NCBI GenBank assembly: GCA_944392815.1
Contig: CALXXY010000004.1
Coordinates: 23,064 to 87,063, forward strand
Length of the DNA: 64,000 bases
Direction of reading: 5' to 3'
Source: an uncultured Alphaproteobacteria bacterium
Lineage (GTDB): Bacteria > Pseudomonadota > Alphaproteobacteria > Rs-D84
In this document: piece after piece, positions 942-7,384 of the stretch
Numbering within the stretch: the first letter of the stretch is position 1
Layout of the letters: each line of letters begins with the position of its first letter
Program-made: the position numbers and the translations under genes
The notes under the pieces: model-generated
The model's input: the letters and a program-made list of their open reading frames with translations, nothing else
Databases searched by the model: none
What the model was told of the DNA's origin: nothing

Positions 942-3900
942 TTAGTACGATATAATATATCGTGCCGGATTACCCCCGCATACGTCGTCGGCCTGGGTTG
1001 CCGGGTCGTCGGCATCGCCCGTGATGTCGGTTGTTGTGCCGCCGTCCAGCACCCAGGCCCATTTCCCGTTATCATATTGCAGATTGCACATAGATGCCTG
1101 ACCCGCGAAATATGATTTGGACGGATAATCAAATCTGGGGCCGTTTTCGTAGTTCGGCGACATATAGTGGTTAGTTCCGTCCTCGGCTACAATCAGATAG
1201 CGCCCACTACATTGCACTGTTTTACCGGCTGGATATGATGTGTCTGTAGTGTCGACGCCGCTAGTGTCGCCAACGCACAGGACATATATCATGCCATCTG
1301 GATAATAGTTGTCCTTGGTCACATTCACCGCGGCAACAAATTTGGCACCTGCGGGGATACACAGCCCCGAAGCGCTTGTGGGGACATTACCCTCGGTTTG
1401 TGTATCGCCGAAACCATCCGCCCTGATGGGATCATCCTCTAAATTTCCGCCCGCGCTACCGTAATAATCCGATGGGGCGGACCAATCCAGGTCGTCAACA
1501 TTTGGCTCGGTGTTTGCCAAGTGGCAGCAGTTTCCAAATGCGTCCGCCGAGCCGCTGGTGTTGCTATTGATTTTGCAGCATGTCATTATGCCATTGATTT
1601 CCAATTGCCACAGGGTCGACGGGCTGCACATGTTGTTGTGGCCGTCCAGGTTGGCCTCGGACGTGCAGGCGGTCGCGCCGGTTTCTGGGTCCAGAACCGC
1701 GATGAATCCGGGGCCGCATGATGTGTCGCGGCATGCGTCTGGGGCGTCTTCGGTATTGGTGTTTTTGGCAAACCATGACAACAGTGTGTCGTTGCTGGTG
1801 TCCAGTGGCATATTGATTGCGTTGTGCGAATCGGCATTGGCCAAACTGCTGGCGGGGTGTCCCTCGCAGTTGCCCCAGATGCGTTCAGACATACGGCAAA
1901 TGCGGCATTCGTCGGAATCAACGTTGCTGTATGTGCCGTCGTCGTTGTATCCGCACTGGTTTTCGCAGATGTCATATATGCATGTGCCACTGTCCGGGTC
2001 GTTAATGCAATTGTTTATGTTGCTGTGGGTGATTTCATACGCGTTGCCGTATATGCTGGGGTAAAATGCACCGGTGGCGGCGTCGATTTCGTGCGCGTGC
2101 AGTTCCGCTATGCGATCCAGCGATGTTATGCCGGCACTGGTGACGCATTCGACGACTTCGTCCCAACAGGCGGTGCGGTTGATAATCGCCTTTCTGTTGA
2201 CGGACGTGTCAATGTCGTCGCACAGGCCAAAGTTGCCAGATATCGATTTACATGACTGGATAATGCAGGCACGCCCAACCTCGCGACAGGTTTGCAGAAT
2301 TGTTTCGTATGTTTTGTCGGCCGCGATGTCGGTCATGCCGGTTGACCAATCCACACCGCCGTCGGTTGTGTCCAGCAACGCGGTGCAGGCGGTTTGAACC
2401 TCGGCACACATTTGTTTGGCGGTTTTGTCGGCCTCGACCCCGAAAATGGACAGGGCGCGGGCGTCAAATTCCTCTAGCGAATCATAGGCGTTGGTTAAAC
2501 ACTGGGTGGTTAATGTGGTGCAACTTTGGCGGACTTCTTCCAATTTGGCGTCCTGGGCCAATTTGATTTGCGCCAATGCGTCGTCGATGAATTCGTCCCA
2601 TACATAGTCGGCAATGTCCTGGCAATTTTCAGTGGCAGATTCTAAAAACATTTTTTTCGAATTTAAATACCGAACAAATGTGTCGTTGCCGGGAACACTG
2701 GTCCATGTTTGGTTGCCGGTCGGTCGGGTGATTAATGAACCCAAATTTACCAGGTTTTTGGTCAGGATTGCTTCGCCCGTGGACGGATCTATGTATTGGC
2801 CGCTGATGTCCAAACATTTTCCCAAATCGTCACCGCACACGGCCGTATTGGTTAATAAATCCAACATTTTTTTCTTGCACGTTAAAATGTCGTCCGAATT
2901 GCGGGTTTGATATGTGTTCAGGCGTGAAATGTCCAACAGGGCGCTGCCTTCGCGGATTTTTTCGCGCGCCAAATCCTGTTGCGTTTGATATGCCTTGGCC
3001 ACGGTGTTGCAGTCCTGTTCGATGGCCATTTGATATCCGCTTTCGACTATGTCCAGTTCGTCGGCGGTGCAGACCTCCATCGCCATTTCGCGGCAAACGG
3101 GCAAGGCGGCGGAATATAATTCCGTGCCGCTTTTGGTGGTGGTGGACGAACCCGCCAATGAATCAACGCTGTCGAATGCGGCGTCGATGTTCAGCGATAA
3201 TGATATCGGCGCCAGGTTCGCGTCGAATGAATCTGTTTCGAATGTCGTGTTTAATTTTTCGGATATTTCGTCCAATAATTCTTTGGACGCGGTGGTGTCC
3301 TCTTGCTGGAATGCGAGTTCGCCCTCGGTCGCCTGGGATATGGCCAGGGCGTCTTCTTTGTCCATATTCACCGTCAGCAGGCGTTGGTTGAAATCCAGTA
3401 ATTTATCCTCGACCTGGGACAGTTGCGCTTTGACATCGTCGAATTCGTTGACGCGCGATGAACACGCACAGCGTTTTAGTTGGCTGTCCTTGTTCGCGCA
3501 GAATTCGTCCATGCAACTGTAATAAACCTCGCGACAGGTGGTATAGTCGCGCTTGATAATTTCATTCGCGGCGGCCGCGTCGGTTGCGGCGCGTGCAATG
3601 CGATTCGTGGCCGTAGTGCGACGGGGCTGGGTCGCGGCGCGCGATTGTGTGGTGGCCGCGCGGGATATGGTTGTCGCGCTGCGCGATGGGGTGGCGGTAT
3701 GCTGGGGCGCGCTGCGTGATGGGGCGGCCGTGCGGGATACTGTGACGCCGCGTGTGGTGGCCGCGCGCGATGGCACCGATATCACGGATTGCGATGATGT
3801 TGTGGTGCGGGGCAATACCGTCGCGCCAGTGCGCGCAGATACAGATTGTGTCGATGTCGTCGCGCCGCGCGTGGTGTCGCGACTGACCACGTTGCCGTCA

Positions 3901-4151
3901 CGCGTGGACGACGATTGTGTGCGTGTGCGCGTTGTGGTGGGCGGGGTCACGTTTGTTGCGCGCGAAATCCCGGACACTGAATTTGACTGGGTGTGTGTGG
4001 TGGCGGATTGGGTGCGGGACACCGTTGTGGTTGTGTCGCGACGGGTTGCAGCACGCGCAGCCGCGTCCGACGAATCGTCGGCGTATGCGGCGTATACGCA
4101 TATGCCCAGTGCACCCAGGCAACCCAGCAAAATCCGTTTGATTCCCGTCAT
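942..4151 (-). CDS. Large secreted Cys-rich protein with Thr/Arg/Ala-rich N-terminal stalk (1069 aa)
   Basis: Signal peptide, low-complexity T/R/A/S region, many Cys; CREVYYSCMDEFC...RCACS motif shared with 47756-48775. Confidence 0.9.
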   Translation of the reverse strand: MTGIKRILLGCLGALGICVYAAYADDSSDAAARAATRRDTTTTVSRTQSATTHTQSNSVSGISRATNVTPPTTTRTRTQSSSTRDGNVVSRDTTRGATTSTQSVSARTGATVLPRTTTSSQSVISVPSRAATTRGVTVSRTAAPSRSAPQHTATPSRSATTISRAATTQSRAATQPRRTTATNRIARAATDAAAANEIIKRDYTTCREVYYSCMDEFCANKDSQLKRCACSSRVNEFDDVKAQLSQVEDKLLDFNQRLLTVNMDKEDALAISQATEGELAFQQEDTTASKELLDEISEKLNTTFETDSFDANLAPISLSLNIDAAFDSVDSLAGSSTTTKSGTELYSAALPVCREMAMEVCTADELDIVESGYQMAIEQDCNTVAKAYQTQQDLAREKIREGSALLDISRLNTYQTRNSDDILTCKKKMLDLLTNTAVCGDDLGKCLDISGQYIDPSTGEAILTKNLVNLGSLITRPTGNQTWTSVPGNDTFVRYLNSKKMFLESATENCQDIADYVWDEFIDDALAQIKLAQDAKLEEVRQSCTTLTTQCLTNAYDSLEEFDARALSIFGVEADKTAKQMCAEVQTACTALLDTTDGGVDWSTGMTDIAADKTYETILQTCREVGRACIIQSCKSISGNFGLCDDIDTSVNRKAIINRTACWDEVVECVTSAGITSLDRIAELHAHEIDAATGAFYPSIYGNAYEITHSNINNCINDPDSGTCIYDICENQCGYNDDGTYSNVDSDECRICRMSERIWGNCEGHPASSLANADSHNAINMPLDTSNDTLLSWFAKNTNTEDAPDACRDTSCGPGFIAVLDPETGATACTSEANLDGHNNMCSPSTLWQLEINGIMTCCKINSNTSGSADAFGNCCHLANTEPNVDDLDWSAPSDYYGSAGGNLEDDPIRADGFGDTQTEGNVPTSASGLCIPAGAKFVAAVNVTKDNYYPDGMIYVLCVGDTSGVDTTDTSYPAGKTVQCSGRYLIVAEDGTNHYMSPNYENGPRFDYPSKSYFAGQASMCNLQYDNGKWAWVLDGGTTTDITGDADDPATQADDVCGGNPARYIISY

Positions 4152-4209
4152 TCCTTTACTTTATATGTGAATGTTAGCAAATTTTTGAAAACGGGGGCAA
4201 GTTTTATTT

Positions 4210-4296
4210 TGGTGCGGGCAGGGGGAATCGAACCCCCAAGGATTTTAGTCCACAGCATCCTTAGTGCTGCGCGTCTGCCAGTTGCGCCATGCCCGC
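4210..4296 (-). tRNA. tRNA-Leu, anticodon AAG
   Basis: GCGGGCATGGCGCAACTGGCAGACGCG-CAGCA-CTAAGGA-TGCTG-TGGACTAAAATCCTT-GGGGGTTCGATTCCCCC-TGCCCGC-ACCA: 7-bp acceptor stem, long variable arm, A73, encoded CCA; loop C32 U33 A34 A35 G36 G37 A38. Confidence 0.93.
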
Positions 4297-4391
4297 AGGG
4301 TGGGTGATGCGTCAATCTTACAAGAACATGTTTTTTTTTCAATCATTTTATGATATAATTGTGGCGATAATAATAAAGTGGAAGGGGAAAA

Positions 4392-5870
4392 ATGAGAAAG
4401 GTTTCTTTGTTGGCTGTGTTGCTGTTTGCGCCAATTGCGGCGAATGCGGCCGGAACATATTATTCTGGGTATACGACTGGGGCGTATCAATCGCCGCAAA
4501 CGTCGTATGCGTCGCGCCAGACGGGGTATGCCAATCGATATAATACGTCGTATGGTAATACTGGGTCGTATGCCAGTCGGTATAACACGTATGGTGCAAA
4601 TAATGCGCGCAATGTGACAACGCAACAGGTCGCGCAAAGCGCGGCAACACAAACCGGGGGCGGTGCAAAAAAATCTGGATTTTGGCTGGACGCGGGGATT
4701 TTGCATGAAATGGCGCAGTGGCGTTTTGAAATGGCACAGTCCGGCAGTATTTTAAGTTATGATAACCTGGCGTGGAATGTGTTGGACGTGTCGGCCGGGT
4801 ATGCGTTTGATGTTGGCAGCACCACTATGCAGGTTGATGTCGGATTAAAATATGGTATGCAGTGGGGCGAAAGTCCAATGTACGACGATGATATTACCAA
4901 TGGCGGGTATCCGGTGACGTCGTGGTGTACCGATAATAACGACAATGGCGTGTGTGATTCTGGCGACACTTTTCTGGAGGATCAGATTGGTCATGCTATG
5001 TCCATGGGCACCAGCCAGGGCGGCAGTATGATGGGATTTAATGTCGGGTTTGGTTTGACTGATATTTTCAAGATTGGAAATGTGACATTAACGCCGTCGG
5101 TTGGATTTCGGTATTTGAATTATAAACTGACAACCGAAAATAACTATGGGTTGGCGGTTGATACATACAATTGTTTCGAGGTTAATGGCGAAGTTCAATG
5201 TGACCCAATTCTTATCTTTGTCGGGGGCAACGAAGCCGTGCCTGGGCGTGATGACATAAACGATGATATTATTATACCAGGGGGGGCTACGTCGGTGGAT
5301 ACGGCGGGGACATATTATTATATGCAGCCGGGTGAAAGCCATTCGTATGAAACCACATGGATGGGGCCGTATTTGGCGTTGGATATGGATTATGTGATTA
5401 ATCAAAACAATGCTGTGAATGCACGTGTGGAATTGGGATTGCCGGGATATGAATCCGTGGGCGACCAGCCGTATCGTTTTGATTGGCAACACCCAAAAAG
5501 TGTAGAGGATACTGCCGGTATGTTCAGCGCGTTCCATTTTGGAATGGGGGCGAATTGGACAACTGCGATTACCGATTCGGTTGCATTATCGTTGGGTGTG
5601 ACGTATGATTATTACAGTGTCAGCGGCGCGGACGCGACAACATATCTGAATAGTTCGTACTATACTGATCGGTATAATGAAATTTTGAATTCGGACAAGT
5701 GGAATGGCGATGAAGAAGCAATGCTGACCCCAGGGACCGGTAGTGCGGAAGCGATAAATATTAAAGCGTTGGAAGAATCGTGCCCTGGTTGGGTATGCAA
5801 AACCGATGGTGAAATAGAGTCGTTCTATAAATCATTGGGAATTCGCGTCGGGATTAATGCAAAGTTTTAA
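4392..5870 (+). CDS. Outer-membrane beta-barrel protein, omptin-like/Pom-like
   Basis: Signal peptide, alternating beta-strands, C-terminal ...GINAKF; TTWMGPYL and DWQHPKSVE segments recall omptin-fold barrels (family call uncertain). Confidence 0.7.
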   Translation: MRKVSLLAVLLFAPIAANAAGTYYSGYTTGAYQSPQTSYASRQTGYANRYNTSYGNTGSYASRYNTYGANNARNVTTQQVAQSAATQTGGGAKKSGFWLDAGILHEMAQWRFEMAQSGSILSYDNLAWNVLDVSAGYAFDVGSTTMQVDVGLKYGMQWGESPMYDDDITNGGYPVTSWCTDNNDNGVCDSGDTFLEDQIGHAMSMGTSQGGSMMGFNVGFGLTDIFKIGNVTLTPSVGFRYLNYKLTTENNYGLAVDTYNCFEVNGEVQCDPILIFVGGNEAVPGRDDINDDIIIPGGATSVDTAGTYYYMQPGESHSYETTWMGPYLALDMDYVINQNNAVNARVELGLPGYESVGDQPYRFDWQHPKSVEDTAGMFSAFHFGMGANWTTAITDSVALSLGVTYDYYSVSGADATTYLNSSYYTDRYNEILNSDKWNGDEEAMLTPGTGSAEAINIKALEESCPGWVCKTDGEIESFYKSLGIRVGINAKF

Positions 5871-5880
5871 TCGGGCAAGC

Positions 5881-6498
5881 ATGATTGATGTGAAAAAATT
5901 TTTGGTTGCATTATGTGTTGTGGCGGCGCCAGTGATGGCGCATGCCGCAATTGATTTGTCGGGGGTGGCGTCTGTTAATGTGACCAGCGATACCGCCGCC
6001 ACCGCCAAAGATATGGCGTTTGACGAGGCACGCCGTCAAATTATTGCCGACGTTTTGGGACAATATTCCATACCCGATCAATTGGATGCGGTATTGCAAA
6101 ATTCCAAATCGGCCGATTTAACAAATTTGATTGCATCGTCGTCTATTGATGGGGAACAGCAATCTGATACCACTTATTCCGCGAATATTACCATGACGAT
6201 TGATGGGGACGCTGCGCGGGCGTGGATGACCGAAAATAATATTCAAAACTGGCTGACCGATGGGAAATCGGGTGACAGAACCGTGGTGCAGGTTGTTATG
6301 TCTGATAAATTGGCGGGGTGGATTGAATTGAATGCTATTGCCCGGGCCGAGGGTATTGATTTGGATACTAAATTCATTAACGGCAATCGGGTGACGGTGG
6401 AAATTCCCGCTGCGTCACGCAGTGCGTTCACCATCGCCATACGCGAGGCCGGTTGGCGGTACGCCGATCAAAATGGTGTTTTACACATAATAAAGTAA
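5881..6498 (+). CDS. Secreted hypothetical protein (possibly DUF2066-like)
   Basis: Signal peptide from MIDVKK; VNVTSDTAATAKDMAFDEARRQ segment; directly follows the upstream barrel gene. Confidence 0.7.
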   Translation: MIDVKKFLVALCVVAAPVMAHAAIDLSGVASVNVTSDTAATAKDMAFDEARRQIIADVLGQYSIPDQLDAVLQNSKSADLTNLIASSSIDGEQQSDTTYSANITMTIDGDAARAWMTENNIQNWLTDGKSGDRTVVQVVMSDKLAGWIELNAIARAEGIDLDTKFINGNRVTVEIPAASRSAFTIAIREAGWRYADQNGVLHIIK

Positions 6499-6502
6499 TT
6501 CG

Positions 6503-7384
6503 ATGTTTAAAAAAATTTCTGTTGTTTTGTTGTTGGGTCTGACTGTGCCGGCGGTTGCGTGTGCCGATACGGCTGAATCTTTGTTTGGGGTGTCGCACGA
6601 TAATCAAAATTTGAAATTGTCTGTGCGCAGAATTGGGCTGGATTGGTCGAAAACCCAGGTACGAAATTCCGCAGAATATCAGGATTCGCCTGTGTCTGCG
6701 TTGAACGCCACCAGCCAGGATTATATCAAGGGCGTGTTTGATACCATTTTGGAATTTACCAAAAATAAATTTAAATGGGACAACAGTTTGGTGATGGAAT
6801 ATGGCAAAACTACGCTGAAACCGTATAACGCGCCGGCAACAACCGATGAAAATGCGGATAAAATTTTGTATTCCAGTGATTTGTCTTATTCGTGTTGGGA
6901 ATTTGCGGGGCTGAAATTTGGTCCGACTGTGCGTGCGGCGTATGAAACTCAATTCGCCGACAGCGTGGAATCGCCGCGACAGAATATTGTTCGTTCCAGT
7001 GCTGGTATTTCGCTGTTTGATCACAATATTGTTAAAAGTTTATATTTAACCGGTATCCACGAATATGATTTTACGTATGCCGGGGATCAGAATAACAAAA
7101 TCGGTGCTGAATTTGGGTGGCGGTTGGAATATGGACTTCGCGACGGGGTCAAGGTTTCGTCCGATGGATATTATCGTGAATATTTTTCTTATTCTGGATA
7201 TGTGCCGACCGATTTGGAACGCGATTTAAGTGCAGTGTTGCGTTTGGATACTAATTTATGGGGGAATTTCACTATGGGGCCGTATGTGCAATATCGTTTG
7301 GCCAAGGCCCGCGCCGCCCAGCACTATGGCAGCAATTTAATCGTTGGAATTTCGTTTAATTATATAACAGATTTTCTGTTGTGA
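6503..7384 (+). CDS. Outer-membrane beta-barrel protein (DUF3078-like)
   Basis: Signal peptide, WDNSLVMEYG and amphipathic strands, aromatic C-terminal strand. Confidence 0.65.
   Translation: MFKKISVVLLLGLTVPAVACADTAESLFGVSHDNQNLKLSVRRIGLDWSKTQVRNSAEYQDSPVSALNATSQDYIKGVFDTILEFTKNKFKWDNSLVMEYGKTTLKPYNAPATTDENADKILYSSDLSYSCWEFAGLKFGPTVRAAYETQFADSVESPRQNIVRSSAGISLFDHNIVKSLYLTGIHEYDFTYAGDQNNKIGAEFGWRLEYGLRDGVKVSSDGYYREYFSYSGYVPTDLERDLSAVLRLDTNLWGNFTMGPYVQYRLAKARAAQHYGSNLIVGISFNYITDFLL

Follow-up and report, generated by a model that had tools for sequence, protein, structure and literature searches.

The alphaproteobacterial genus Candidatus Enterousia possesses a tRNA-Leu gene with the anticodon AAG, which, as judged from sequence comparisons, is a genuine and functional gene found throughout the lineage. 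With a probability of roughly 70%, A34 of this tRNA is deaminated to inosine by TadA as in the Lactobacillales, and the enzyme would accept it owing to an anticodon loop mimicking that of tRNA-Arg(ACG). By its position in the genome and its sequence, the Enterousia gene is best described as the orthologue of the alphaproteobacterial tRNA-Leu(GAG) gene in which G34 has become A34.

The 64-kb stretch of DNA analyzed here (the window, C4:23064-87063) is part of a 927-kb assembly of 18 contigs, the source genome G000, with a G+C content of 45.5% and a completeness of 96.8%. MAGs of the genus were obtained from chicken, horse, ruminant, and human gut. Candidatus Enterousia is listed among the Alphaproteobacteria incertae sedis in the NCBI taxonomy and is assigned to order and family Rs-D84 in GTDB (PMC12306168); the Rs-D84 genome paper contains no mention of tRNA or codons (PMC12306168). 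ARAGORN predicted two tRNA genes in the window, one of them the tRNA-Leu gene listed in Table 1, for which the Rfam tRNA model RF00005 gave a score of 48.8 bits (gathering score, 29). In the reverse complement, the 5′ half of the tRNA reads GCGGGCA-UG-GCGC...CGCG-CAGCA-CUAAGGA-UGCUG and is followed by a 16-nt variable arm and the 3′ half GGGGG-UUCGAUU-CCCCC-UGCCCGC-A-CCA. The sequence folds with a 7-bp acceptor stem, U8, a D arm, a long variable arm, and the T stem GGGGG/CCCCC, and the anticodon loop C32-U33-A34-A35-G36-G37-A38 is enclosed by the stem CAGCA/UGCUG. The initial annotation, made from the letters of the window, had described a tRNA-Leu with A34, this anticodon, this stem, and this loop, in exact agreement with both the ARAGORN call and the reverse-complement reading. 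The site it had proposed for inspection (4262-4264) includes A34, but its other two bases correspond to U33 and C32.

Table 1. Features of the tRNA-Leu(AAG) locus, with positions counted from the first nucleotide of the window
Feature	Position	Strand	Support or remark
tRNA-Leu(AAG) gene, type II, 87 nt, A73, encoded CCA	4210-4296	minus	ARAGORN; Rfam RF00005; cloverleaf with compensatory pairs
Anticodon arm CAGCA-CUAAGGA-UGCUG	4253-4269	minus	Invariant in the genus; position 35 is the only difference from the loop and A31-U39 pair of the resident tRNA-Arg(ACG)
Anticodon AAG (plus strand, ctt)	4260-4262	minus	A34 is the complement of base 4262
Promoter-like site TTGAAA-16 nt-TAAGAT	4315-4342	minus	Consensus match and conservation
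1069-aa secreted protein, Thr/Ser/Arg-rich, then Cys-rich (cluster F3)	942-4151	minus	No Pfam match; second syntenic anchor
Pom-like outer-membrane protein (cluster F1)	4392-5870	plus	Pfam PF17251 (1.1e-9); syntenic anchor
213-aa secreted protein gene	5857-6498		
DUF3078 protein gene	6503-7384		

The promoter-like site has its 3′ limit 19 nt upstream of the 5′ end of the tRNA, and a motif of the form TTGAAAA...TA(t/a)AAT occurs at the same position in most of 30 congeneric loci. In some congeneric genomes (loci L002, L003, L011, and L016), a GC-rich palindromic segment (CATGGCGACTAC...GCCGCCATGG-like) is present upstream of the tRNA instead of the conserved promoter region.

Conservation in related MAGs had been suggested as a check on the unusual anticodon. 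A BLAST search with the tRNA against the genomes of 36 congeneric species gave matches in all 36 and an orthologue in 33 of them; in G015, G023, and G029 the match covered the T arm only. AAG was present in all 30 congeneric orthologues that were fetched. When the genus was searched with a pattern combining anticodon arm and T loop, 243 of 257 species genomes proved to have the AAG arm, 174 of them among the 181 genomes of high quality, 6 genomes contained a GAG arm instead, and none of the 257 contained both, with the anticodon states of these relatives being pattern matches in partly incomplete MAGs. Among 24 distinct congeneric orthologues, 8 of the 25 predicted base pairs were kept through changes on both sides. 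These compensatory changes were located in the acceptor stem, in one pair of the D stem, and in the stem of the variable arm, and the anticodon arm was invariant. A few genomes contained the Leu(AAG) arm twice, namely G134, G269, and G299, in the last case with copies 193 nt apart on one contig (C97:2937-3177).

These results leave next to no room for the idea that AAG reflects an assembly or sequencing error, or a dead copy accompanying a real tRNA with GAG, and we regard it as refuted for practical purposes by the genus-wide occurrence of AAG in independently assembled genomes and by the compensatory evolution of the stems. In addition, the AAG arm differs from the standard alphaproteobacterial Leu-GAG arm, which is CAGCG-UUGAGGU-CGCUG in the G34 control sample, by five linked changes at positions 31, 32, 34, 38, and 39, which is incompatible with a single base-calling error. 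A dead copy would also leave the source genome with no reader for its CUY codons, as described below.

A whole-genome search with ARAGORN yielded 45 tRNAs, including the leucine tRNAs UAG, CAG, UAA, CAA, and AAG. Neither Leu-GAG nor any other CUY reader was found among them, and Leu-AAG and Arg-ACG were the only A34 tRNAs. The initial annotation had asked whether Leu-GAG and Leu-TAG are both missing from the genome; this turned out to be the case for GAG, whereas Leu-UAG is present. Nor need the new tRNA read the CUN box, a possibility raised in the initial annotation, because the retained Leu-UAG and Leu-CAG leave CUU, CUC, and at most CUA to be served by Leu(AAG). ARAGORN detected no tRNA-Ile and no tmRNA in the assembly; the likely reason is that repeats or the rRNA operon remained unassembled, so that the tRNA census of the source genome is incomplete. 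Identical copies of tRNA-Gln(UUG) are located at two contig ends (C5:4-77 and C13:15942-16015).

Codon usage was determined from 665 long open reading frames, which cover 82% of the genome. Of the leucine codons, 47% were UUG, 27% CUG, and 23% UUA, and CUU and CUC together accounted for only 2.1%; expressed per 1000 codons, CUU occurred 1.3 times, CUC 0.4 times, and CUA 1.0 times. CUY codons were present at ~1 per 1000 codons in core genes and at 6 to 10 per 1000 in AT-rich, island-like genes. As at least one CUY codon was found in 206 of the 665 reading frames, tRNA-Leu(AAG) must be indispensable. The near extinction of CUU, CUC, and CUA despite a G+C content of 45.5% is a peculiarity that the neighboring G34 genera share. 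In rpoB regions, CUC was just as rare in the G34 genera g13 and g16, and the rarity of this codon in Enterousia is therefore not caused by A34.

Such an extreme rarity of CUU, CUC, and CUA is the usual precondition for codon capture, and CUN codons have in fact been reassigned in yeast mitochondria. A different identity of the tRNA or a reassignment of CUU and CUC is nevertheless exceedingly improbable. The tRNA carries A73 on a type II body, and its acceptor stem resembles those of the other leucine tRNAs of the genome. At conserved RpoB columns of the A34 lineages, 176 of 191 CUU codons and 33 of 36 CUC codons (92% each) were located on leucine columns, much as in the G34 lineages, where this was the case for 319 of 337 CUU codons (95%) and 64 of 71 CUC codons (90%). 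CUU and CUC thus still specify leucine in the A34 lineages, and codon reassignment was rejected.

The distribution of the two anticodon states was followed through the order Rs-D84 and beyond. In family f1, AAG was found outside Enterousia in genera g19, g20, g27, and g28 and in part of g26, and GAG was found in g13, g14, g16, g17, g18, g22 to g25, and g29, in the other part of g26, and in a small subclade of Enterousia. Family f6 was represented by two genomes with AAG and one with GAG, and families f2 to f5 had GAG. Leu(AAG) was not found in 397 Alphaproteobacteria sampled from roughly 200 other families; the sole match to the AAG pattern among them lacked a complementary stem and was a chance match. 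The G34 version of the pattern matched in 108 of 119 control Alphaproteobacteria, corresponding to a sensitivity of ~91%.

In both states the tRNA gene is flanked by the genes for the 213-aa secreted protein and the Pom-like protein on one side and by a gene for a secreted, Cys-rich protein of ~1000 aa on the other. According to a synteny table, this locus is shared by genera g1, g13, g16, g17, g23, g27, g28, and g29. The surrounding block of envelope genes (942-7384 in the window; loci L128 to L146) is kept across family Rs-D84.

In a quick single-gene tree, built from RpoB of 47 Rs-D84 genomes by maximum likelihood, the A34/G34 label required 7 changes, with at least 6 of them forced by well-supported branches, compared to ~15 changes for shuffled labels. 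In family f6, the GAG tRNA of G041 is identical to the AAG tRNA of G048, a member of the same genus, outside the anticodon and variable arms. By sequence, the f6 switch is a clean in-place conversion that is independent of that in family f1. In family f1, an A34 allele with the T stem GGGGG alternates with a G34 allele with the different stem CUACC/GGUAG and the T stem AGGAG among close relatives at the same locus, and recombination among relatives, replacing one allele by the other, is here as likely an explanation as repeated mutation. The six Enterousia species with GAG (G029, G081, G137, G278, G285, and G288; loci L128 and L129) have a quite different arm, CYACY/GGURG, and the T stem AGGAG at the same locus, which looks like an allelic replacement rather than a point mutation. 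On the RpoB tree, G081 and G137 are sister to the AAG clade.

The interleaving of A34 and G34 alleles on the RpoB tree hints at some exchange, and the gut is a habitat that Enterousia shares with the Lactobacillales. An import of the A34 gene from the Firmicutes or another phylum is nonetheless very improbable and was rejected. The arm is the standard alphaproteobacterial CAGCG arm with five changes, the GAG and AAG tRNAs of one f6 genus share the same body, and AAG and GAG genes occupy one locus between the same genes. Exchange may have occurred among Rs-D84 relatives. The notion of an independent decoding change in a reduced, proteobacterial genome, put forward in the initial annotation, fits well with this origin from the resident Leu-GAG gene.

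Comparison of the anticodon arms pointed to tRNA-Arg(ACG) as the template of the new loop. In the source genome, the arm of Arg-ACG is UCUGA-CUACGGA-UCAGA and that of Leu-AAG is CAGCA-CUAAGGA-UGCUG; the two loops differ at position 35 only (C in Arg-ACG, A in Leu-AAG) and are closed by the same A31-U39 pair. A loop of the form CU-NNG-GA was found in no other tRNA of this genome, and the sibling tRNAs Leu-UAG and Leu-CAG have loops of the form UU-NAG-GU. Wherever A34 has taken the place of G34, four further bases differ as well: C32 has replaced U32, A38 has replaced U38, and the pair A31-U39 has replaced G31-C39. The order-wide search patterns left position 38 free, and all A34 matches listed for Rs-D84 had A38, A31-U39, and C32 (U32 in one genus), whereas U32 and U38 were combined with another 31-39 pair in every listed G34 match. 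The Arg-ACG arms of other Rs-D84 lineages conform to NCUGA-CUACGGA-UCAGN. The exception is G045 of family f6 (C26:1800-1838), where the Arg-ACG loop is CUACGAA with A37 and the Leu-AAG loop is CUAAGGA with G37, so that the mimicry is imperfect in places.

The bases 32 to 38 of the anticodon stem-loop were reported to be enough for recognition by TadA (PMC8216470). E. coli TadA deaminated ~15% of an orthogonal AAG tRNA carrying a loop identical to that of Arg2, and any tested change at position 32, 37, or 38 of this tRNA abolished deamination (PMC11066159). From the two proven TadA substrates of S. pyogenes, the consensus YUAMGRA was derived (PMC11472039). The CUAAGGA loop of the Enterousia tRNA fits this consensus. 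The 32-38 pair also tunes the strength of decoding on the ribosome, which offers a possible function of the loop changes in translation instead of in TadA recognition.

The source genome contains one TadA-like gene, located on contig C14 (C14:4355-4840), whose product comprises 161 aa from a TTG start and 152 aa from the first Met; the 152-aa version was the one used. Its HAE and PCxxC motifs are intact, and its best PDB matches are the TadA proteins of Aquifex aeolicus (2e-32) and Agrobacterium. The best NCBIfam match is the TadA equivalog, with a score of 106.7 bits that lies below the curated cut-off of 150. The tadA sequence, which had also been named as a point to check, thus revealed one gene with intact catalytic motifs and TadA proteins as best matches. 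In agreement with a need for this enzyme, CGU and CGC represent 82% of the CGN codons in the arginine box, and an I34 pathway is therefore required regardless of Leu(AAG).

Inspection by eye of 46 aligned TadA sequences, 19 from A34 and 27 from G34 lineages, revealed no residue separating the two groups. A C-terminal extension has been noted for S. pyogenes TadA (PMC11472039); it has no counterpart in the enzyme of the source genome, which extends 3 residues past the aligned core compared to ~15 in 2nx8. The broadened TadA specificity considered in the initial annotation is thus not reflected in the enzyme, and it is the tRNA loop that changed. Because no TadA residue tracks the A34/G34 switch, the adaptation seems to reside in the tRNA rather than in the enzyme, provided that TadA edits Leu(AAG). 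In the one published biochemical comparison, E. coli TadA left streptococcal tRNA-Leu(AAG) unedited (PMC11472039), and the permissiveness of the Enterousia TadA is therefore an assumption.

We propose the following sequence of events. The transcript would be aminoacylated by LeuRS like any type II leucine tRNA, and the single TadA would deaminate A34 to I34. TadA would accept Leu(AAG) because, apart from position 35, the loop and its closing pair match those of the resident tRNA-Arg(ACG), with C32, U33, A34, G36, G37, A38, and A31-U39 forming the same recognition element in both tRNAs. A latent tolerance of TadA for A35 would suffice, and the loop changes would exist for the sake of this enzyme. 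The mature tRNA-Leu(IAG) would read CUU and CUC and could also read CUA.

Alternatively, A34 might stay unmodified and read CUU well and CUC poorly, which would be tolerated since Enterousia is nearly devoid of CUY codons. We consider this unlikely, although several observations are in its favor. The codon frequencies given above are low for CUU, for CUC, and for CUY codons in core genes, and CUC occurs 0 to 1 times in the rpoB regions of core Enterousia. No TadA change goes along with the switch, and the inactivity of the E. coli enzyme on streptococcal Leu-AAG points in the same direction. Furthermore, E. coli tolerates unmodified A34 tRNAs in four-codon boxes, and these tRNAs function there (bioRxiv 10.64898/2026.05.15.725136).

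As CUC is almost unused in Enterousia, a need for reading C cannot be argued from the source genome alone. The equal rarity of CUC in g13 and g16, however, deprives the codon frequencies of much of their meaning in this respect, and across the A34 lineages the usage of CUU and CUC in rpoB regions varies from 1% to 60%. In g20, g26, and f6-g9, whose arm is identical to that of the source genome, CUC is used heavily, with 16 to 67 codons in the rpoB region, and Leu-GAG was not found among the type II tRNAs listed from these genomes. These lineages therefore need an efficient reader of C, which argues for inosine. The share of CUC among CUY codons was 0.28 in A34 and 0.22 in G34 lineages. This is a descriptive comparison of lineages that are related to each other, limited to those with a minimum of 20 CUY codons and a G+C content of at least 0.47. 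An avoidance of CUC as a sign of unmodified A34 was thus not seen in the rpoB regions across A34 lineages. With an unmodified A34, the four coordinated Arg-ACG-like changes would have no obvious purpose, and a TadA is encoded whose target consensus is matched by the loop. Taken together, the indirect evidence favors inosine over unmodified A34.

A restricted version of this alternative, according to which A34 is not or only partly deaminated in Enterousia proper, so that the tRNA is a true A34 reader of the few CUU codons and CUC is drifting toward being unreadable, appears quite unlikely. If it were true, Enterousia would be a bacterium outside the Mollicutes at the stage of codon disappearance that precedes codon capture, and ribosomal decoding, not TadA, would be what maintains the CUAAGGA loop.

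Unmodified A34 tRNAs are represented by tRNA-Thr(AGU) of Mycoplasma and organellar tRNA-Arg(ACG), which read a whole box alone, often in cells or organelles without TadA. Enterousia resembles these systems in that its genome is reduced and that A34 is found in a tRNA other than Arg-ACG. In contrast to the superwobble tRNAs of Mollicutes and organelles, its Leu(AAG) is not the sole tRNA of the box, and TadA, Leu-UAG, and Leu-CAG are present.

Returning to inosine as the preferred reading, the closest parallel is the tRNA-Leu(AAG) of the Lactobacillales, in which I34 is proven and depends on TadA in O. oeni, S. pyogenes, and S. mutans (PMC11472039, PMC13249217), and for Enterousia we infer the same modification. 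Both groups encode A34 in a type II leucine tRNA and retain Leu-UAG, both have replaced Leu-GAG by AAG such that the two never occur together, both have a YUAAGGA loop with A38, and in both TadA is the only candidate deaminase. Enterousia differs in belonging to another phylum and in the independent origin of its tRNA from an alphaproteobacterial GAG gene, and its TadA has neither the C-terminal extension of the S. pyogenes enzyme nor a visible adaptation. The Leu and Arg-ACG loops differ at position 35 only in the source genome, but at positions 35 and 37 in S. pyogenes, a situation that recurs in G045. Whereas CUU and CUC rose genome-wide in the Lactobacillales (PMC13249217), CUY codons are nearly extinct in Enterousia.

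With the canonical pair of TadA and tRNA-Arg(ACG), converted to ICG, as known from E. coli and from the S. aureus structure 2B3J, the Enterousia system has in common the enzyme family and the loop C32-U33-A34-N35-G36-G37-A38 on A31-U39; it is distinguished by A35 instead of C35, by the type II body, and by leucine identity. The tRNA-Leu(IAG) of eukaryotes, a product of ADAT2/ADAT3, shares the anticodon and is likewise expected to decode CUU, CUC, and CUA. ADAT2/ADAT3 is a heterodimer that recognizes its substrates by the entire tRNA and accepts many different loops, whereas the homodimer-type TadA of Enterousia would depend on loop mimicry.

Surveys of genome databases in which cultured bacteria predominate assign almost all bacterial tRNA-Leu(AAG) genes to the class Bacilli (PMC13249217), and only scattered A34 tRNAs have been reported in Proteobacteria (bioRxiv 10.64898/2026.05.15.725136). 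In the literature on A34 and inosine in Alphaproteobacteria and on Enterousia, we found no report of Leu(AAG). A decoding trick that is rare, but not unprecedented, thus appears in a further bacterial lineage. Leu(AAG) is fixed in a species-rich gut genus of the Alphaproteobacteria and in several sister genera, and I34-type decoding would thereby be extended to a second, unrelated bacterial setting. Moreover, the order Rs-D84 provides a natural series of close relatives in which one syntenic locus carries either a G34 arm (UUGAGGU) or an A34 arm (CUAAGGA, A31-U39). The state has switched six or more times in this series, and TadA shows no change that would correspond to the switches. This series makes it testable whether an expansion of inosine decoding starts from a substrate that copies tRNA-Arg or from an enzyme that relaxes its specificity, a question that bears on the origin of the eukaryotic multi-substrate ADAT.
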